Source of the DNA: an uncultured Anaerolineales bacterium
GTDB lineage: Bacteria > Chloroflexota > Anaerolineae > Anaerolineales > UBA4823
DNA length: 64,000 nucleotides
Assembly: GCA_937928795.1 (NCBI GenBank)
Contig: CALFWB010000003.1
Span: forward strand, 56,971 to 120,970
Direction of reading: 5' to 3'
The notes under the pieces: generated by a model
Seen by the model: only the letters and a program-made list of their open reading frames with translations
Databases searched by the model: none
Told to the model about the DNA's origin: nothing
Part shown: piece by piece, positions 1 through 8,416 of the stretch
Layout: every line of letters starts with the position of its first letter
Position numbering within the stretch: position 1 is the first letter of the stretch
Made by a program: the position numbers and the translations under genes

Positions 1-66
1 AAAGCATTGAGAGAATTGTCGGAATATGTAATCTTACGGCATATATAATTAGTGTTTCCGACCTAG

Positions 67-113
67 TTTGTAGGACAACTCAATGAGTTGTCCTACAACT
101 TTTGCGTGGACAC
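67..113 (-). repeat. Truncated, inverted copy of the 78-bp nested-hairpin repeat family (left arm plus inner hairpin)
   Basis: The reverse complement of 67-113 equals the first ~47 nt of the elements at 21971-22048 and 61607-61684. Perfect palindrome GTAGGACAACTC-AAT-GAGTTGTCCTAC at 70-96. Confidence 0.8.
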
Positions 114-128
114 TTTATGATTCTTCCC

Positions 129-157
129 TTGACGGAATGATTTTCAGGTGATATATT
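129..157 (+). promoter_or_regulatory. Sigma70-like promoter TTGACG-N17-TATATT
   Basis: TTGACG at 129-134, a 17-nt spacer, TATATT at 152-157. Lies upstream of the leader ORF and the aminotransferase operon. Confidence 0.45.
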
Positions 158-167
158 TCCGCTCAAT

Positions 168-242
168 ATGATGACAAACTGCGCGACAACCACCAATATG
201 ATGACTACTCCCTCCCTAAAAAGGTGGGGCGTTCGCGCGTAA
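168..242 (+). CDS. Putative 24-aa Thr/Met-rich leader peptide (MMTNCATTTNMMTTPSLKRWGVRA)
   Basis: Hand translation from ATG 168 to TAA 240-242 gives 6 Thr and 4 Met in 24 codons. The ORF overlaps alternative-pairing segments upstream of a terminator. No clear Shine-Dalgarno, so it would be near-leaderless. Confidence 0.4.
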   Translation: MMTNCATTTNMMTTPSLKRWGVRA

Positions 243-270
243 GATGCAGAAGGATAGCAAGGATAAATTC

Positions 271-295
271 AAACGCCCCGCTCGGGGCGTTTTTT
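271..295 (+). terminator. Rho-independent terminator / attenuator hairpin
   Basis: AAACGCCCC (271-279), loop GCTC, GGGGCGTTT (284-292), with the T-run continuing to 295. Sits 28 nt upstream of the ATG at 324. Confidence 0.7.
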
Positions 296-323
296 ATAAC
301 TAGAATCTAAAGGAGTTATCTAA

Positions 324-1637
324 ATGGAAAATCTTATCCCTCTTGACCAACCTGTCTTTGCAGTTCCTCAGGAGAACCTAATTCCCGTGAATGATTACCT
401 AAGTAAGATGATGGATATTCCTCCTTCGAGGATGTTTCTAATCAACAAGTCGTTGAAGGTTTTTCAAGAGAAATATCCTGGAGAACCGATTTATGATGCC
501 TCGCAAGGAGATGGGGGAGCCAGTTTGCCCGGTGTTTTGCCGGAGATCCTAGAAAAAGCAGCCGAAATGCAAATTCAGCACGGAACTTCTTATGATATGC
601 CCTATGGAACGGACGAGTACCGCCGTTCGGTCATTGAGGACTATTGGAAAATCGACTCTGCTTTGGGGATCACGCCGGCCAATGTGATTGGCACGGCAGG
701 CGGCAGAGATGCATTAGTCAAAGCCTATCAGGCGATGTTAGCACTTGGATACGGCAGGGTTGGAGATGTAGTGATTGTCTCGCGCGTGCCATGGATCTCC
801 TATAACTGGGGACCCTATGGTATTGGCGCAAATGTCCTCTATGCCCCCGGAAATCCAGAAAACGGTTGGGCATATACAGAGGAGAGCATTGAAGAGTGTG
901 TGAACTTTGCCTCGAAAGCGGGGCGCAAAATCGCCTGTTTGGTGATTACCAATCCCGATAATCCAACCGGACTGACCTTATCGGTTGAAAGGCAAGTGAG
1001 CCTAGCAAAAAAGGCGTTGGAATTAGGGGTGGCATTTGTGTTATTCGATTGGATGTATCACTATGTCACCGATGAGCAACCCATGGATCTAAATTCTTTC
1101 TTGCAGAATTTCTCGAAAGAAGAACGGAAAAAGTTGGTGTTTTTGGATGGGATCACCAAAAGCTTAGGTGGCTCGAATATCCGTAATAGCCACCTAATCG
1201 CCTCGGAAGAAGTGATCAAGTTCATCGTCTCGCGCGCCTCTCATACGGTCATGCCGACTTATTTTTCTTTGGCAGTAGCCATGGCAGCCTATAAAATGGG
1301 GTATGACAAAGCCTCAAAACCGATTGTCGAACCTACCAATGCCAGTCGAAAAGTTCTCAAGAAATTTTTGGATGAACATCATTTCACCTATATTCTCGGC
1401 AAAGGGTATTATGCCTTTATCCACGTTGGGGATTGGTTGAAATCCAAAGGGTGGACAAACACAGAACCGATGGGGCAATATTTCGCTGAGGAATTTGGCT
1501 TAGCCATCGTGCCAGGTGCCTTCTTTTCCGCATACGGCGGGGAATGGATTCGCTTCTCTTATGCCACTCCCGTTGAGAGAACGTTGGGAGCACTGGAACG
1601 CTTAGTTCAAGGTTTGAACAGTTTGGAGGGCGCATGA
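324..1637 (+). CDS. PLP-dependent aminotransferase, class I/II
   Basis: 437 aa. Fold-type I motifs (NPDNPTG; PLP-lysine context ITKSLGGSNIR). SD AAAGGAG at 309-315. Its stop overlaps the next start (ATGA at 1634). Confidence 0.85.
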   Translation: MENLIPLDQPVFAVPQENLIPVNDYLSKMMDIPPSRMFLINKSLKVFQEKYPGEPIYDASQGDGGASLPGVLPEILEKAAEMQIQHGTSYDMPYGTDEYRRSVIEDYWKIDSALGITPANVIGTAGGRDALVKAYQAMLALGYGRVGDVVIVSRVPWISYNWGPYGIGANVLYAPGNPENGWAYTEESIEECVNFASKAGRKIACLVITNPDNPTGLTLSVERQVSLAKKALELGVAFVLFDWMYHYVTDEQPMDLNSFLQNFSKEERKKLVFLDGITKSLGGSNIRNSHLIASEEVIKFIVSRASHTVMPTYFSLAVAMAAYKMGYDKASKPIVEPTNASRKVLKKFLDEHHFTYILGKGYYAFIHVGDWLKSKGWTNTEPMGQYFAEEFGLAIVPGAFFSAYGGEWIRFSYATPVERTLGALERLVQGLNSLEGA

Positions 1638-4513
1638 GCCAATATAACGTCGTCAATTTTGTTGAGAAATTTCGTCATGCCTTAGAGGTTGCTGAGCAAA
1701 CCAATCCACAAAGTGGTATCTGTGGCTATGAACTCGAGTGGAACATGCTCGACTCCCACCTCTGGCCACTGCTGACCGTGGGCTCAGGTCCAGAGCGGAT
1801 ATCCTTCGTGGATTACCTACGCGATGAAATCATTCCGGCTTCCTTTCGATCTTTCTCCCAGCTTGAGGTCTATCACTGGATGATCGAATGGGCAACCAGA
1901 CCGTATTATCACCTCATCGGTGCTGTCTATGAGTCACGCGTGCTGGAAGCCATTTTGATCAATGCTTTGCATCAGGCAAGTGCGAAATTTGGGGAAAGAT
2001 TTTATTATTGGCACGGAAATTTGCTCTTTCAGCCTCAGTTTGGTAAAGACTGTATTCCCGGTTCGTGGAATTTGGCAAAAAGGCGTTACCTTGAACGTTG
2101 TGTGGATATGTATGGGGCTGCCTTGGCGACTGCTGGCATCCATGCGAATCTCTCTCTGCCGGAAACCTTGCTATCCTGGGATTTTGTACACCAAAGTCAA
2201 AATTTGCCGAATCATCTCAGTCAACCTTTTCAACACCTCGATGACTACAAGAATTACGTCTACATCCGCGCCACAAGGTTGTTGAGAGCTTTTGCATCGG
2301 TTTTTATTGCCACTACAGCCTCAACACCATTTGTCAGTCAGTACCGCAACGGTAAGCAGGTGATCGTGTTAGCCAAAGCCGATTCGGTGCGGAACTTGAC
2401 TTTTCCCAACCCGATCTTATTGGATTTGCCGGGTTTATATCGCTCGCATGAGGATTACTTGCGCATTTCATACGAGCTGGTGCGAAAAGGTATCCGTTTT
2501 GGGAATAACAACTGGACCCCTGTACGAGCGCGTTCCTTTTCAGAGCCGGTAGAGCGCTTGATTGCTATCACCAGCGACCAACTGCGTCAATTGTATGCGC
2601 GCGGTCTATATACCGCCAGCAGAGACGATCAAGCCGAAGCAATGGCACGCGAAATTGAAGTTCAAAACCTCTTGGCACGCATTAACATTCCCATGTCGAG
2701 GGTTGAGGTTCGTTGTGACGAAGGCGGACATGATATGGAGACCGATCTAGCTAACCTCACCCTCAAGTACCTGTTGTTGTTGCGCTTCTATAGCGATCCC
2801 TCTTTTGCGGTTAGCTTTCGGTATGAAGTAGAAGATATCGAGCGGGCGCGACGTAATGAAGAAAAAGCGGCCCGCGATGGCTTAGACGCCGAAATCGAGA
2901 ATCCGCTCAGCGGCAAACCGGTTGTCGTGCGAGAATTTTTGGGTTGGATCTTGGATGAATTAATGCCCTTAGCCGAAGGCTTAGAGGTTTCCTCTTTTCT
3001 CCAGCCTTTGGTTGAAATGGCAAAAGGCGCTCCAAATACCTCGCAAAAGATTCGTCAACGCGTTTTGCAGGAGCTGGGTGATTGCGACGAGATTCCGCTT
3101 GAATACCTGCAGAAACTTGCTGAAGAGCGCGAAGAAGCAGTTCGAAAGGACATTGCCACAATCCAGAGTGAGTTGTACCGCCTGGGAAATGAGGCAAATA
3201 AATTGGAGAGCTTGATCCAACGGGGCAGAGACGAATACCGTCAATATCCTAACATCCCGATCTCGTTTAAGCCGCTCCGACCGTTGCAGATTCTCAAGGT
3301 GTACACGGATAAAACCACAGAAATTGTGGACCTAGCGATGCAACTGATCCAAATTCCTTCAGTGACCGCCTGTGCCAACGAGCGGTTGGAAGATGTTGCC
3401 TATGCCGCCTCCTTCATTTGCAATTATGCCGAAAAATGCGGTTTAGAAGTGCGCTATTTCAATAAACATAAATATCCTGCCTTACTAATCGGTTTTCCCG
3501 GCGATTTGTATGCTCCGGTTACCTTGAGCGGTCACTTTGATGTGGTTCAACCTGCGCCGGATGACTCGCAGTTTGTCCCTCGCCTAGAAGGCAATTACCT
3601 CTTAGGCAGAGGCGCAGCAGACATGAAAACGGTCGTTGCTACCTATTTGGTGTGGCTCAAGGATCGCTTGATTCAAGGCGAACCTTATCCGCCGCTCAAC
3701 CTGCTTCTCGTTGGAAATGAAGAAAACGGCGAGTTTGAACCGATGGGCACTCCTCATGTGTTTGACCAAATCGTCAGCGAAGGATATCCTTTACCCCAGC
3801 TCTTCATCGCTGGAGAGAGAACTGGGGAAAAAGGCGATGAGTTATTCGGAGAGATTTGCACCTCGAATCGCGGCATCATGCGCTTTGATGTCATTGCCAA
3901 AGGTGCACGGGCTCATACCAGCCAGACCTCGGTTGGCACTGCGGTGAAAGGGGACTTAACCGCCAAATTGTTTGACTTTCGCCAAAAAATGACCGAGCTG
4001 TTTCAACGAAGCCTGACTCTTTCAAGTCCTGACCGCTGGAACTCGCAATTTCAGATCCCTTTTGTGCGCATTGGTGAGGAAGGTTTATACAATGTTTCAC
4101 CAGAGTTTGCCATCATGGGGGTAGAAGTTCGCCCTATACCTGAAGAGAATGTAGATGAACTGGTGAGTAACCTTCAAGACCTGTGTCGTCAAAATGACCT
4201 GGAGTTCCACCTCAAGGTGTGCGAAAAAGGCATCCGATGTAATGCAGACAATCCTTACTTACAAAACCTAATTGAGGCTTATCAAGATGTTGCTGGCCAG
4301 TCTCCAAGGATCGGGAAAAAACTACCTGCTACCAGCGCGCGCTTTGCACCCCAAGGTCAAGGGATTGTGTGGGGACAAAGTGGAGTCGATCCTCATGGTT
4401 ACAACGAAAAACATTACCTTCCGAGTATCAAACCTTATTACGATGTTCTCACCGCCTTCGCAAAACGTCTTGAGAGTCAAGCTATTGTATCTATCAAGGA
4501 GAAAGAGGGATGA
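1634..4513 (+). CDS. Two-domain fusion: N-terminal GshA-like glutamate-cysteine-ligase/carboxylate-amine-ligase domain plus C-terminal M20 (ArgE/DapE/ACY1) metallo-amidohydrolase
   Basis: 959 aa. N-terminal motifs: GYELEWNMLD, QLEVYHWMIEWATRP, AGIHANLSLP. C-terminal motifs from about aa 555: LIQIPSVTA, SGHFDVVQP, GRGAADMKT, LLLVGNEENGE. SD GGAGGG is present and both gene junctions overlap. Confidence 0.7.
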   Translation: MSQYNVVNFVEKFRHALEVAEQTNPQSGICGYELEWNMLDSHLWPLLTVGSGPERISFVDYLRDEIIPASFRSFSQLEVYHWMIEWATRPYYHLIGAVYESRVLEAILINALHQASAKFGERFYYWHGNLLFQPQFGKDCIPGSWNLAKRRYLERCVDMYGAALATAGIHANLSLPETLLSWDFVHQSQNLPNHLSQPFQHLDDYKNYVYIRATRLLRAFASVFIATTASTPFVSQYRNGKQVIVLAKADSVRNLTFPNPILLDLPGLYRSHEDYLRISYELVRKGIRFGNNNWTPVRARSFSEPVERLIAITSDQLRQLYARGLYTASRDDQAEAMAREIEVQNLLARINIPMSRVEVRCDEGGHDMETDLANLTLKYLLLLRFYSDPSFAVSFRYEVEDIERARRNEEKAARDGLDAEIENPLSGKPVVVREFLGWILDELMPLAEGLEVSSFLQPLVEMAKGAPNTSQKIRQRVLQELGDCDEIPLEYLQKLAEEREEAVRKDIATIQSELYRLGNEANKLESLIQRGRDEYRQYPNIPISFKPLRPLQILKVYTDKTTEIVDLAMQLIQIPSVTACANERLEDVAYAASFICNYAEKCGLEVRYFNKHKYPALLIGFPGDLYAPVTLSGHFDVVQPAPDDSQFVPRLEGNYLLGRGAADMKTVVATYLVWLKDRLIQGEPYPPLNLLLVGNEENGEFEPMGTPHVFDQIVSEGYPLPQLFIAGERTGEKGDELFGEICTSNRGIMRFDVIAKGARAHTSQTSVGTAVKGDLTAKLFDFRQKMTELFQRSLTLSSPDRWNSQFQIPFVRIGEEGLYNVSPEFAIMGVEVRPIPEENVDELVSNLQDLCRQNDLEFHLKVCEKGIRCNADNPYLQNLIEAYQDVAGQSPRIGKKLPATSARFAPQGQGIVWGQSGVDPHGYNEKHYLPSIKPYYDVLTAFAKRLESQAIVSIKEKEG

Positions 4514-5943
4514 AGGATAAGCAGCTCTTGGTCATGAAATTTGGAGGGACATCAGTAGGGAACAGTGAGGCGATGAAGCAGGTTAGGGACATTATCAAAA
4601 ATGTCCTTGATGAAGGTTGGATGCCGGTGGTCGTTTTATCGGCAATGGCCGGCGTTACCGATGATTTGCTTCGCTCCACGGAAGTGGCTAAAAACCGACG
4701 TTACGATCAAGTGTTACAAACTGCCGGAGCTCTCACCACGCGCCATTATCAAGTCGTGGATGACCTCATCCACGAGACCGGGAGAAAAGTGTTCGTTAAG
4801 CAACAAATTGACCAATTGGTCAGTATGTTCGCAGAGTATTGTCGAGCGATTGATATTATTGGAGAAGCTACCCCTCGTGTCTTGGATGCAATTGCAGGGA
4901 TTGGGGAGATGTTATGTGTGCGCATCTTCGCCGAATATCTCAATGCAAGCGGCATCCCTGCAAGAGCCATGGACGCCACCAAGCTTATTGTTACAGACCA
5001 TGCTTATCAAGCCGCTCATCCCATCCGAGAAAAGACAGAGCGTAAGGTACAAGAAACCCTCTCACCTATCCTTCAATCGGGAATTGTACCGGTAGTTACA
5101 GGATTTATTGCAGCCACCGAGGACGGAACCACTACGACCCTTGGGAGAGGAGGCAGTGACTACTCCGCAGCTTTGCTTGGTGCGTATTTACCGGCTACAG
5201 AAGTTTGGATTTGGACGGATGTGGATGGTGTGATGACCGCTGACCCGCGCATCGTTCCCGATGCCGTAACCATTGATGTTTTAACCTTTCGCGAGATCGG
5301 CGAGCTGGCATACTACGGGGCAAAAGTGGTTCACCCCAAAACCATGCAACCCTTAATCGATGCTGGCATCCTCATCCGGGTCAAGAATACCTTTAACCCC
5401 TCCCACCCGGGCACCCTCTTAACGCTAGAAAACGAGAAGCAGCTCAACGGGGCAATCAAAGCGGTGACTTCGATCAAGGGGCAAGCTTTGGTAACGATCG
5501 AGGGGCGAGGGATGCTAGGCGTACCCGGAGTCGCAGCAAGAGCATTTGGCGCAGTTGCGGCTACTGGGACAAGTGTTCCCTTAATTACTCAAGCTTCCTC
5601 CGAACAGTCCATTTGCTTTGCTGTCCCTCAGCAATCGGTTGAAACGGTTTTACGTTCGCTCAATGAGACCTTTAGCCGTGAGTTGGCAAACAGAGATATT
5701 GACCGCATCTGGGCAACGGATGAAGTTGTCATTGTAACGATTGTGGGCGCAGGGATGCGCAGCACTCCAGGGATTGCCGGAAGAATCTTTGGTAAATTGG
5801 GCTCAAACGGGATCAATGTGATTGCAATTGCGCAGGGCTCGTCGGAGGTTTCGATTTCCCTGGTCATCGATAAGGCAGACGAGCAAGGAGCTGTGCGGGC
5901 GATTCATGAATTGATTGTGCCAAAAGTCGAACAGGTCGGTTGA
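4510..5943 (+). CDS. lysC: Aspartate kinase (monofunctional, with C-terminal ACT domains)
   Basis: 477 aa. Begins VMKFGGTSVG, contains GRGGSDYSAA, and has a tandem ACT-like C-terminus. Its start overlaps the upstream stop. Confidence 0.9.
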   Translation: MKDKQLLVMKFGGTSVGNSEAMKQVRDIIKNVLDEGWMPVVVLSAMAGVTDDLLRSTEVAKNRRYDQVLQTAGALTTRHYQVVDDLIHETGRKVFVKQQIDQLVSMFAEYCRAIDIIGEATPRVLDAIAGIGEMLCVRIFAEYLNASGIPARAMDATKLIVTDHAYQAAHPIREKTERKVQETLSPILQSGIVPVVTGFIAATEDGTTTTLGRGGSDYSAALLGAYLPATEVWIWTDVDGVMTADPRIVPDAVTIDVLTFREIGELAYYGAKVVHPKTMQPLIDAGILIRVKNTFNPSHPGTLLTLENEKQLNGAIKAVTSIKGQALVTIEGRGMLGVPGVAARAFGAVAATGTSVPLITQASSEQSICFAVPQQSVETVLRSLNETFSRELANRDIDRIWATDEVVIVTIVGAGMRSTPGIAGRIFGKLGSNGINVIAIAQGSSEVSISLVIDKADEQGAVRAIHELIVPKVEQVG

Positions 5944-5988
5944 CAAAATGAATTGGTCATAGTAATATTTTTTAAGACGAACAGTGAT

Positions 5989-6060
5989 GGCGAGGTAGCT
6001 CAATGGTGGAGCAGGGGACTCATAAGCCCTTGGTTGTGGGTTCAAATCCCACCCTCGCCA
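5989..6060 (+). tRNA. tRNA-Met (anticodon CAT), elongator type; tRNA-Ile2 (lysidine) not excluded
   Basis: Cloverleaf folded by hand: acceptor GGCGAGG/CCTCGCC, anticodon loop CTCATAA, T arm GTGGG-TTCAAAT-CCCAC, discriminator A. G1-C72 is paired, so it is not an initiator. No encoded CCA. Confidence 0.85.
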
Positions 6061-6113
6061 CTCTTTACTTAAAACCGTTGGCTTTCCCCCGAATGAACGA
6101 CCAAAGGTGAGCG

Positions 6114-6998
6114 ATGAACAAATTCGAACAATTACTATCCGAGTCCAAGACCATCCTTCTTGATGGCGCAATGGGAACGATGCTCATGTCCAAGGGCATG
6201 GAGGCCGGTCAAGCTCCAGAAAAGATGAACCTTGACCATCCTGAAATCGTGCAAGAAATCCACCGCGCTTATATTGAAGCTGGCTCAAATGTTATCTTGA
6301 CCAACACCTTTGGGGCAAATCGTTTTCGCTTGATGCGCCATAAGTTGGACGATCGGGTTAGGGAAATTAACCAAACTGCGGCACGATTAGCTCGTCAAGT
6401 AGCTGATGAGTTTCCCAACGTTATTGTCGCCGGATCCATGGGTCCAACCGGCGAATTGATGGCCCCACTGGGGAAGCTATCTTTCGAGGATGCGGTTCAA
6501 GCCTTTGCCGAACAAGCCGCTGGCTTATCCAGCGGCGGTGTGGACGTCATTTGGATCGAGACCATGGCAGACCTTCAAGAAGTCAAAGCGGCTGTACAAG
6601 GAACCCGTTCGGTAACTCGCCTTCCGATTGTCGTGACCATGACCTTTGAAAGCCGAGGCAGGACAATGATGGGCGTTACCCCTGAGCAACTGGTTCGGCT
6701 GGCAGGGGAGCTAGAATTGAGTGCGGTGGGAGCAAATTGCGGAAAAGGACCCCAAGAGCTAGAAGCAGTGATTGAGCGGATGCACAAGGCGGGTTGCCAG
6801 ATTCCCATCATTGCCAAAGCCAATGCCGGAATCCCGAAACTCATAGAGGGCAAAGTCATCTATGATGGCTCACCCGAAATTATGGCTGAACACGCTCGCG
6901 TTGTGAATCAGAGCGGTGCAACCCTAATCGGCGCCTGTTGTGGCAGCTCACCCGATCATATCCGCGAAATGCGCCGCGCCCTTTTCCTGGACCTATAA
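6114..6998 (+). CDS. Homocysteine S-methyltransferase domain protein (stand-alone MetH-type Hcy-binding module)
   Basis: 294 aa. Contains LLDGAMGTML, a GANCG cysteine and GACCGSSPDHI (Zn-ligand cysteines typical of the S-methyl_trans domain). Confidence 0.85.
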   Translation: MNKFEQLLSESKTILLDGAMGTMLMSKGMEAGQAPEKMNLDHPEIVQEIHRAYIEAGSNVILTNTFGANRFRLMRHKLDDRVREINQTAARLARQVADEFPNVIVAGSMGPTGELMAPLGKLSFEDAVQAFAEQAAGLSSGGVDVIWIETMADLQEVKAAVQGTRSVTRLPIVVTMTFESRGRTMMGVTPEQLVRLAGELELSAVGANCGKGPQELEAVIERMHKAGCQIPIIAKANAGIPKLIEGKVIYDGSPEIMAEHARVVNQSGATLIGACCGSSPDHIREMRRALFLDL

Positions 6999-7005
6999 TA
7001 AAAAA

Positions 7006-7022
7006 TCCCTCTTGATGAGGGA
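7006..7022. terminator. Short hairpin between convergent genes (weak terminator candidate)
   Basis: TCCCTC-TTGAT-GAGGGA directly after the stop at 6998 and beside the tRNA-His 3' end. Confidence 0.3.
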
Positions 7023-7027
7023 GTGTT

Positions 7028-7104
7028 TGGGGTGCCAGATGGGTCTCGAACCCACAACCCTCGCATCCACAGTGCGATGCTCTGCCAATTGAGCTACTGG
7101 CACC
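7028..7104 (-). tRNA. tRNA-His (anticodon GTG) with encoded G-1 and CCA
   Basis: The reverse complement folds as G-1 + GTGCCAG acceptor, anticodon loop CTGTGGA, T arm GTGGG-TTCGAGA-CCCAT, C73, CCA. Confidence 0.95.
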
Positions 7105-7123
7105 ATCATTGGTTGAAGTTATT

Positions 7124-8416
7124 TTACCATAATCTCTCTTTGTGAGCAAGAAGAGGGATCAATTTTTCATCGATCTCGGACAACCGTATAGAGGATTGTT
7201 CACCTGTCCTCAGAGACTTGAGTGCGAGCATATCCGCAGAAATTTCGTCCGGACCTAGGATGATAGCATAAGGAATTTGCATTCGGTCGGCGTACTTTAG
7301 TTGCTTGTTTAGATGGACGCTATCGGGATAAGTGACGACGTTGACGCCTTTTTCTCGAAGCTGAGACGCTAGTCTCAATGAATGAGTGAAGGTTTCGGCT
7401 GAAAAAGTTGTAATGAGAACTTGAGCAGGATGGGAAAAGATGTCTGAGGGGATACAATCATACTCTTGTAAGATAAGCGAAATGACGACATCCCCCATGG
7501 CAAAACCGACTGCCGGCAAGGGGTCTCCACCGACTGCGGCGAGTAAATCGTCATAGCGTCCGCCTCCTAAGATAGACCTTCGCACCGTTCCACCGATATC
7601 TTTGGCTTCAAAAACTGTCGAGGTGTAGTAATCCAAACCGCGGATGATGTTCGGATCAAATTCGATATAATCGCTAGCTGCAGCAGTGTCCAGAGCATCA
7701 AAGATTCGGAGCAGATTTGGAGAGGACTTCCATAGTTCGGTGTTCTGTAAAAGATTAACGATGCCACTAATCTGAGATGAATTTAACCCTTCATCTTTGG
7801 CGTAATTTTCCCACTCTCGGAATTCCATTTTTTCTTTGCGATCGATTAATCGAAAGACATTTGAGCGCCTTTCTGGGGGAATTTCCAACAGGTTTAAATG
7901 GTCTTCCATCAACTTTCGGTCATTGACAAAAACCTTAACCTGTGCCGAAGACAAACCGACAGCCTTAAAGAAGGACACAATCACAGAGAGCAACTCAGCA
8001 TCGGCTTCGGGGGTGTTGAGGCCGATCAGGTCGATATTCCATTGAAAAAACTCGCGCGAACGTCCTTTTTGGGGTTTTTCGTATCTCCAGAAAGGACCAA
8101 AAGACCACCACCGCAAGGGAAAGACCAATTGTTTTTGCTTTTGAGCCACCATGCGGGCTAGAGAGGGGGTCAATTCAGGGCGCAGGGTGATTAACTCTCC
8201 GCCGCGATCTGGAAAAACAAAGGATTGCTCTTTGACTAATTCTTCCCCAGATTTCGCCGCGTAAAGGTCAATAGGTTCTAAAAACGGACCGTCATACTCT
8301 TGATAGCCATAACGCTGAGAAATCTGCTTAATCTTCTCGTATAACCATGATCGAACGGCCATGTTTTCGGGATAAAAATCCCGCGTGCCTTTGATGGCAG
8401 GAATAATCTGCTTCAT
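7124..8416 (-). CDS. hisS: Histidine--tRNA ligase
   Basis: 430 aa. N-terminus KGTRDFYPE. Class II aaRS HisRS motifs (FRYEKPQKGRSREF, GGGRYD). SD AGGAGAAG. Confidence 0.95.
   Translation of the reverse strand: MKQIIPAIKGTRDFYPENMAVRSWLYEKIKQISQRYGYQEYDGPFLEPIDLYAAKSGEELVKEQSFVFPDRGGELITLRPELTPSLARMVAQKQKQLVFPLRWWSFGPFWRYEKPQKGRSREFFQWNIDLIGLNTPEADAELLSVIVSFFKAVGLSSAQVKVFVNDRKLMEDHLNLLEIPPERRSNVFRLIDRKEKMEFREWENYAKDEGLNSSQISGIVNLLQNTELWKSSPNLLRIFDALDTAAASDYIEFDPNIIRGLDYYTSTVFEAKDIGGTVRRSILGGGRYDDLLAAVGGDPLPAVGFAMGDVVISLILQEYDCIPSDIFSHPAQVLITTFSAETFTHSLRLASQLREKGVNVVTYPDSVHLNKQLKYADRMQIPYAIILGPDEISADMLALKSLRTGEQSSIRLSEIDEKLIPLLAHKERLW

Follow-up and report, generated by a model that had tools for sequence, protein, structure and literature searches.

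A candidate leader-peptide attenuator with a threonine-rich, apparently leaderless ORF upstream of an aminotransferase operon in Anaerolineae

Organization of the operon and its leader region

The sequence analyzed here is a 64 kb stretch (the window, whose coordinates are used throughout) of contig CALFWB010000003.1, from an uncultured Anaerolineales bacterium (Chloroflexota), and the element under study is the leader region of an operon that begins with a class I/II aminotransferase gene. The elements of the leader region and the genes of the operon are all on the + strand. The aminotransferase gene (311–1637, ORF 324–1637) is preceded by a Shine-Dalgarno (SD) sequence, AGGAG, at 311–315, and is followed by a gene (1634–4513) whose 959-aa product joins an N-terminus resembling GCS2-type carboxylate-amine ligases to an M20 (DapE/ArgE-like) deacylase and, in the lineage of the window, by an aspartokinase gene (4510–5943) coding for an AA_kinase domain and two ACT domains. 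The leader region contains a promoter, a short open reading frame (ORF) rich in Thr codons and an intrinsic terminator, together with sequences that can form mutually exclusive pairings, designated segments 1 to 4. An initial annotation, made from the letters of the sequence, proposed that these elements form a ribosome-mediated leader-peptide transcription attenuator in control of the operon that contains the aspartokinase gene, with the geometry of alternative 1:2, 2:3 and 3:4 pairings. The fold of the window switches accordingly when codons are masked, and the ORF, its codons, the terminator, the antiterminator and their co-adapted partners are kept in relatives; we consider it very likely that the operon is controlled in this way.

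Homologs of the aminotransferase, with 72–100 % identity, were nearly all from genomes of Anaerolineales/Anaerolineae (Chloroflexota) and from metagenomes, and a scan of one genome per species yielded 595 genome stretches containing relatives of this protein. The best 80 of these 595 stretches (L001 to L080; 69–91 % identity, with flanks of up to 6 kb on each side) served as comparison loci, and the leader was inspected in the 330 nt upstream of the aminotransferase gene of each of them. The 80 loci come from one species each yet are related to one another, and the number of loci with a given feature does not tell how many times it arose independently. The closest relatives of the window are L001–L005, whose aminotransferases are ca. 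90 % identical to that of the window.

Promoter and predicted leaderless start of the leader ORF

The promoter (129–157) comprises a −35 box TTGACG (129–134), a 17-nt spacer and a −10 box TATATT (152–157), as initially described, and has in addition an extended −10 TG at 149–150; it is the top-ranked promoter-like site within positions 1–8000 of the window. The upstream ORF ends around position 47 and is followed by a terminator (68–104) consisting of a 15-bp perfect hairpin (68–98) and CTTTTG. Since this hairpin closes the upstream gene, transcription of the leader should depend on the promoter at 129–157 and be shielded from read-through.

From the geometry of the promoter, transcription is predicted to start at 164–166, the 7th to 9th nucleotide past the −10 box, which would leave 2–4 nt before the AUG of the leader ORF and make the transcript leaderless or nearly so. 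The leader ORF (168–242) has 24 codons (MMTNCATTTNMMTTPSLKRWGVRA), six of them for Thr, including the run ACA-ACC-ACC at 186–194, and four for Met, and its stop codon TAA (240–242) is immediately 3′ of segment 2; these elements were read correctly in the initial annotation. There is no SD sequence ahead of the ATG at 168 because the −10 box, which ends 10 nt upstream, fills that space. This had been entered as a caveat, and it proves to be a conserved feature of the design: the ATG is situated 7–13 nt past the −10 box in every leader-bearing locus, when by a rough estimate an ATG would fall within such a 7-nt range by chance in ca. 10 % of the loci.

About 64–68 of the 80 loci share the same layout, with a promoter, a near-immediate ATG lacking an SD sequence, a Thr/Asn-rich ORF, segment 2 and a terminator. 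A simple parser identified the pattern TTGACN-N17-TGnTAnnnT followed 7–13 nt after the −10 box (8 or 10 nt in most cases) by an ATG in ca. 64 of them, and variants were recognized by eye, namely a GTG in the start position (L016 and L076), a −10 box TATAAA (L077) and a locus that begins within the leader (L012). Among the carriers of the leader are L050 and L067, two MAGs labeled as Anaerolinea thermophila, a cultured relative. The frame of the ATG has a median open length of 34 codons (5 and 9 in the other two frames). Segment 2 is passed without a stop codon by this frame in 60 of 61 loci, and by the other two in 13 and 11. In the clade of the window the stop codon adjoins segment 2; in most other lineages the ORF runs on through this segment and, in 20 loci, stops 10–11 nt ahead of where the terminator stem begins, a position that would park a terminating ribosome against the foot of the hairpin. 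A short Thr/Asn/Asp-rich ORF starting immediately after such a promoter was counted 59 times in the 0.9 Mb of fetched loci, each time at the leader site, and once in the 64-kb window; no further copy of such a leader was found elsewhere in either.

Three further observations concern this region. The −10 box and the ATG are separated by a conserved, GC-rich sequence (158–167 in the window), which is TGCGC(G/C)CA in the class with 8 nt and nnCGCCCAAT in that with 10 nt; in Escherichia coli, a GC-rich discriminator of this type is linked to stringent control. In the 20 loci with a stop codon 10–11 nt before the stem (within L014–L078), the linker often contains a small GUGAAC…GUUCA hairpin and the protein reads …LSGEQQxVH. 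Finally, in the ca. 110 nt that precede the aminotransferase gene, L009, L011, L013 and L015 have a strong promoter and no leader ORF; their terminator is the same one (AACGCCCC…GGGGCGTT or ACACCCC…GGGGTGT) and begins ca. 14 nt past the predicted start, and the four loci share a conserved CTACCAAATTCTNACCC stretch.

Terminator and mutually exclusive pairings

The terminator contains segment 3 (271–282, AAACGCCCCG), which is both its 5′ arm and the 3′ side of the antiterminator, and segment 4 (283–295, CGGGGCGUUU), which is its 3′ arm and includes the U-tract (290–295). Its position at 271–295, 28 nt before the aminotransferase ATG at 324, is that of the initial annotation, and its arms (271–280 and 283–292) form a perfect 10-nt inverted repeat, with 100 % complementarity, with six T residues at 290–295. 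The terminator core AACGCCCCG…CGGGGCGTT and the U-tract are near-universal across the loci. RNAalifold recovers only the terminator from the full leader alignment, where pair 177:199 displays 12 double-sided changes. Between the terminator and the SD sequence of the aminotransferase gene, L054 (ca. 5890–5970) contains a very stable GC-rich palindrome, CCCCCACCCGTCC…CCTCCCCCATTTTC…GAAAATGGGGGAGG…GGGGG (−48.5 kcal/mol), which is also in L022, L044, L061, L066, L067, L070 and L078; it is not present in the window and appears once elsewhere in the fetched loci.

Segment 2 (223–239, GGUGGGGCGUUCGCGCG) can pair with segment 1 or, through positions 223–233, with segment 3. A repeat search situates GGGGCGTT at both 226–233 and 284–291, complementary to AACGCCCC at 272–279, which agrees with the initial observation that the sequence of the terminator 3′ arm recurs upstream and could pair as an antiterminator; the antiterminator predicted for the window is an 11-bp helix (223–233:272–282) that excludes the terminator. 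Segment 1 (180–217), the 5′ side of the anti-antiterminator, consists in minimum free energy (MFE) folds of an outer arm (180–186, UGCGCGA) and either the Thr run at 190–194 or the local CUCCCUCCC (207–217). The complementarity of GCGCGA (181–186) to TCGCGC (233–238), also anticipated in the initial annotation, is used in the MFE fold.

When the unmasked RNA of the window (165–298) is folded, the 1:2 pairing (180–186:233–239, enclosing 207–232) forms together with the terminator. If Thr codons 186–194 or 204–209 are masked and segment 4 is still untranscribed, 223–233 pairs with 272–282 (11 bp, −20.2 kcal/mol), so that masking of the Thr codons switches the window from terminator to antiterminator. 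A ribosome modeled on the stop codon covers segment 2, and the terminator alone then forms. The same modeling in the family gave the 2:3 pairing in 51 of 56 loci with the ribosome at codon −7, and the terminator in 55 of 56 full transcripts. The fold energy of window positions 160–300 is by itself ordinary (z = −1.37); a single sequence therefore cannot decide, and the case for more than chance rests on conservation in relatives.

Conservation of the pairings

The nucleotide alignment of the leaders has a mean column identity of only 46 %. Segment 2, with the consensus GGGRCGTTGG, nevertheless starts always 50–67 nt past the ATG and complements the terminator 5′ arm and a few preceding bases. 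The 2:3 pairing is formed in 82.5 % of the alignment cells, versus 33–53 % when the partner is slid by one to three columns, and 13 cells are changed on both sides, a value reached by none of 500 shuffles. Moreover, a three-way covariation (G/C/G to A/T/A in segments 2, 3, and 4) is found in six loci.

In per-sequence folds, 55 of 56 loci have segment 2 paired to the codon region. The 3′ half of segment 2 pairs with Thr-Asn codons, as CACCAACG:CGUUGGUG in most relatives and, for the window clade, as GCGCGA:UCGCGC; the partner of its 5′ half is an arm situated closer by (CCCGC:GCGGG or CUGUCAC:GUGACGG, and the ACC-ACC-ACC run with GGUGG in the window clade). Since the register of the 1:2 pairing slides between species, we used alignment-free partner-swap tests with controls. 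Segments bound their own partners better than foreign ones for both the 1:2 (−17.3 vs. −14.9 kcal/mol) and the 2:3 pairing (−18.7 vs. −16.9 kcal/mol), with 0 of 5,000 permutations in each case. No such advantage appeared in five control regions, and in three coding regions examined as controls none was significant.

A separate observation is that the linker joining segments 2 and 3 (alignment columns 103–160) complements these segments less well in its own leader than in those of other species, 1,962 and 1,994 of 2,000 permutations, respectively, being at or below the own value. The pattern looks as if misfolding with the switch segments had been selected against.

Codon content of the leader ORF

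The putative regulatory codon block (174–209) of the window contains codons for Thr (174–176, 186–194 and 204–209), Asn (177–179 and 195–197) and Met (198–203). Across leaders, Thr makes up 16.4 % of the residues versus 4.2 % in the adjacent aminotransferases (3.9 times more), and Asn 9.0 % versus 3.7 % (2.4 times). In 55 of 63 distinct leaders it is the frame of the ATG that is richest in Thr, and all four Thr codons are in use. Both amino acids peak 4–14 codons before segment 2, with single-position maxima of 62 % for Thr and 41 % for Asn; Asp reaches ca. 20 % only at the 5′ edge of the block, its overall frequency being that of the background. Among the codons left unpaired by the predicted 1:2 fold, 43 % are for Thr and 25 % for Asn, and among the paired ones 25 % and 16 %, respectively. 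The bias is stronger in unpaired codons, and base-pairing needs therefore do not explain the enrichment in Thr and Asn.

The initial annotation described the leader as rich in Thr and Met. The Thr part applies to the whole family, in which Thr appears to be the constant signal and Asn, not Met, is also enriched. Internal Met codons are mainly found where the operon includes an aspartokinase gene (nine of 11 such loci vs. 10 of 50 others, the loci not being phylogenetically independent), and the Thr/Met reading therefore suits the lineage of the window. Conservation in the upstream regions of the orthologous operons extends to the small ORF, its Thr codons and the alternative pairings.

Proposed mechanism

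The elements described suggest the following model. Transcription would start ca. 2–4 nt before the AUG at 168, and the 24-codon leader would be translated without an SD sequence. A shortage of Thr-tRNA (and probably of Asn-tRNA or, in the lineage of the window, Met-tRNA) would make the ribosome stall within 174–209 and cover segment 1; segment 2, thus freed, would pair through 223–233 with 272–282 of segment 3, blocking the terminator and allowing the RNA polymerase to enter the operon. With plentiful charged tRNAs, the ribosome would reach the stop codon at 240–242 and cover segment 2, and if no ribosome is loaded, segments 1 and 2 would pair with each other. In both of these situations segments 3 and 4 would form the terminator, and transcription would stop at the U-tract (290–295). 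The mechanism would be that of the classical thr, trp and his attenuators; the element is well conserved, but mechanistically expected.

Several results weigh against this model. Its least supported step is efficient translation from an AUG that is probably 1–3 nt from the 5′ end. A crude scan of 0.92 Mb of the same genomes yielded only four weak candidates for leaderless long genes, and leaderless initiation is therefore not obviously routine in them. Leaderless genes have been predicted in four of 12 Chloroflexi genomes, where they amount to ca. 5 % of the genes (PMC3160421). The weakest structural element is the 1:2 pairing, whose stability is only modestly above that of shuffled or unrelated sequences. 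Its z-scores average −1.2 across loci and are 0.0 in the window, and in absolute terms random coding segments bind segment 2 nearly as strongly (−12.6 to −15.5 kcal/mol). Because the position of the 5′ arm shifts by entire codons from one species to another, RNAalifold did not recover a consensus 1:2 helix from the full leader alignment, and the alignment of segments 1 and 2 yielded no pairs at all. The Thr-Asn codon pair ACC-AAC is complementary to GUUGGU of segment 2, and part of the codon bias could therefore be structural. As for the antiterminator, it includes an A·C mismatch in 24 loci, and in 24 of 56 loci the 2:3 pairing is already the equilibrium fold in the absence of a ribosome, so that regulation would have to be kinetic. 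The method used did not detect a clear 2:3 pairing in a subclade of five loci (L020, L024, L058, L065 and L071), which may rely on another alternative structure. The leaders of this subclade have a Thr-rich ORF, predicted to be leaderless, ending in …SFSSWDGGQWK* and a terminator with an 8-nt loop.

Alternative explanations

The codon block could be read as RNA rather than translated. A TRAP- or PyrR-like protein could recognize periodic A-(C/A)-(C/U) triplets in 174–209 and so choose between antiterminator and terminator, the ORF being incidental; the block does have a 3-nt periodicity (mostly A in the first position, C/A in the second and C/U in the third) that a multimeric RNA-binding protein could read, and leaderless translation, a prediction in these leaders, is seemingly rare for ordinary genes of these genomes. 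We regard this as improbable, since it leaves unexplained the fixed distance of the ATG to the −10 box, the frame-specific ORF open through segment 2 and the situation of the stop codon, either right after segment 2 or, in the 20 loci mentioned, shortly before the stem; besides, there is no linked candidate gene for a regulator, the operon consisting usually of only two enzyme genes. Another possibility is that the terminator is an unregulated, leaky one in the 5′ untranslated region, giving for instance a low basal level of expression, with a functionless ORF and functionless alternative pairings. The ordinary fold energy of the single sequence would fit this explanation, as would the four loci that retain promoter and terminator without a leader ORF. 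It is quite improbable, nonetheless, because the frame-specific ORF, the codon bias and the spacing of segment 2 from the ATG are kept despite the low identity of the leaders, the pairing partners are co-adapted and sequences complementary to segments 2 and 3 of the same leader are avoided in the linker.

A conserved switch between terminator and antiterminator in the 5′ leader of an amino acid-related operon is also what would be expected from a riboswitch binding a metabolite or a tRNA, either T-box-like or of a new ligand class, and acting on the same pair of structures. Searches with 4,227 Rfam families, however, produced no genuine match in the window even at E ≤ 10, and none in ten relatives at gathering thresholds, the only hits being noise, tRNAs and rRNAs; the best match of a leader family in the window was Trp_leader (15.4 bits, for a gathering score of 41; E 9.8), Thr_leader was absent at E ≤ 10, and T-box specifier or aptamer motifs had no Rfam match in the window or in the ten relatives. 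The element is short and lacks a multi-stem aptamer, there are no conserved junction or loop nucleotides outside segments 2–4, and what is conserved is the codon identity, with use of all the synonymous Thr codons, making a riboswitch very improbable. The least probable explanation is control at the DNA level by a repressor bound, shortly after the promoter, to two copies of CAATATGATGAC (164–175 and 194–205, 30 bp apart). The 12-nt direct repeat pointed out in the initial annotation does exist and is exact, and its spacing is of ca. three helical turns, but its interpretation as tandem protein-binding sites was rejected because it is missing in the nearest relatives: in L001–L005 the second copy is CAATACGATGAC or CCGTGCGATGAC and the first diverges after CAATATG. 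A single ACG-to-ATG change in the genome of the window suffices to create the repeat, which looks accidental, and the sole conserved part, CAAT(AT)G, is the context of the start codon.

Comparison with known leader peptides

The candidate attenuator of this operon shares with the thr operon leader (thrL) of E. coli, and with the trp, his, leu and phe attenuators of Proteobacteria, a short ORF rich in codons for an end product (Thr), the mutually exclusive 2:3 and 3:4 pairings with a predicted 1:2 pairing, an intrinsic terminator before the first structural gene and, in the lineage of the window, a stop codon abutting segment 2 and an operon with a ThrA-related aspartokinase. Unlike these, the leader of the window has no homology to them in sequence or structure, lacks an SD sequence and has its AUG a few nucleotides from the predicted 5′ end, and in most of its Anaerolineae relatives the ORF crosses segment 2 to stop 10–11 nt before the terminator stem. 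The codons are for Thr and Asn (and Asp) in the Anaerolineae leaders, instead of Thr and Ile as in thrL, and the targets are the genes for an aminotransferase and a ligase/M20 fusion, instead of thrABC.

Leaderless short ORFs with polycysteine tracts attenuate downstream operons in mycobacteria, largely without a canonical pair of intrinsic terminator and antiterminator. They resemble the Anaerolineae element in the proposed control of downstream biosynthetic genes by a leaderless ORF enriched in codons for one amino acid, and differ in that the Anaerolineae element has a GC-rich hairpin, a U-tract and a conserved antiterminator. A further parallel is found in other Actinobacteria, where ilvL, leuL and trpL of Streptomyces and Corynebacterium are leaderless leader peptides followed by a terminator ahead of amino acid genes. 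In S. lividans, transcripts of leader peptides start at or next to the start codon and continue into hairpins and a U-rich terminator before amino acid genes (PMC8079986, which cites Seliverstov 2005 and Neshat 2014). The Anaerolineae leaders belong to another phylum, Chloroflexota, and have a different amino acid specificity and different target genes; furthermore, the starts of the actinobacterial leaders come from RNA sequencing maps of transcription start sites, and the leaderless start in Anaerolineae is predicted from promoter geometry.

To our knowledge, gene regulation is almost unstudied in Anaerolineae, a large and mostly uncultured group. We found no published description of leader-peptide attenuation in Chloroflexi/Anaerolineae in the open-access literature, and a survey considered that Chloroflexi had too few genomes to judge (PMC4833913). 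The leaders described here would extend classical leader-peptide attenuation to the Chloroflexota, class Anaerolineae, with the particularity that the sensor ORF apparently uses a leaderless start while the adjoining ordinary gene has a normal SD sequence. The family is large, with the linked aminotransferase encoded in 595 stretches and the leader present in most of the 80 that were inspected, and might serve to build a covariance model for annotation.

Putatively controlled genes and possible role of the operon

The conserved targets of the leader are the genes for the aminotransferase and the ligase/M20 fusion, the latter (ca. 950 aa) adjoining the former in nearly all the loci. The initial annotation highlighted the aspartokinase as part of the controlled operon, which is correct for the lineage of the window, where this enzyme is related to the ThrA type, but not as a rule for the family, because only the window clade and a few other lineages have this gene as part of the operon. 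For the aminotransferase, a divergent class I enzyme, NCBIfam contains no equivalog, and its nearest solved relatives are the Thermus aspartate aminotransferases (E ca. 1e-17). The N-terminus of the fusion shows a faint Pfam match to Glu-Cys ligase in the protein of the window, and PF04107 is found in many homologs; its N-terminal 550 aa had no match among PDB sequences at E ≤ 1. The gene 3′ of the fusion is usually convergent and gives no extra clue to the pathway.

The presence together of a ligase, a transaminase and a deacylase suggests a “protect, transaminate, deprotect” chemistry. The codons for Thr, Asn and Asp, plus Met where there is an aspartokinase, offer a regulatory clue to the role of the aminotransferase and ligase-deacylase pair, which lacks an assigned pathway. 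A speculative interpretation, possible but doubtful, is that the leader, read by ribosomes starting on a leaderless transcript, would sense several amino acids of the aspartate family (Thr, Asn, Asp and, with aspartokinase, Met), and that its codon content would mark the aminotransferase and the ligase::M20 fusion as an unrecognized route of this type in the aspartate-family metabolism of Anaerolineae.

A tRNA gene with anticodon CAT (Met type) is situated directly after the aspartokinase gene in the window (within 5940–6061) and in several other lineages, in L001 (11749–11820), L002, L003, L007, L010 and L057. The copy in the window comes with a separate promoter-like site (TTGACA-N17-TAATAT, 5940–5968) and is followed by a gene for a homocysteine S-methyltransferase (6114–6998).

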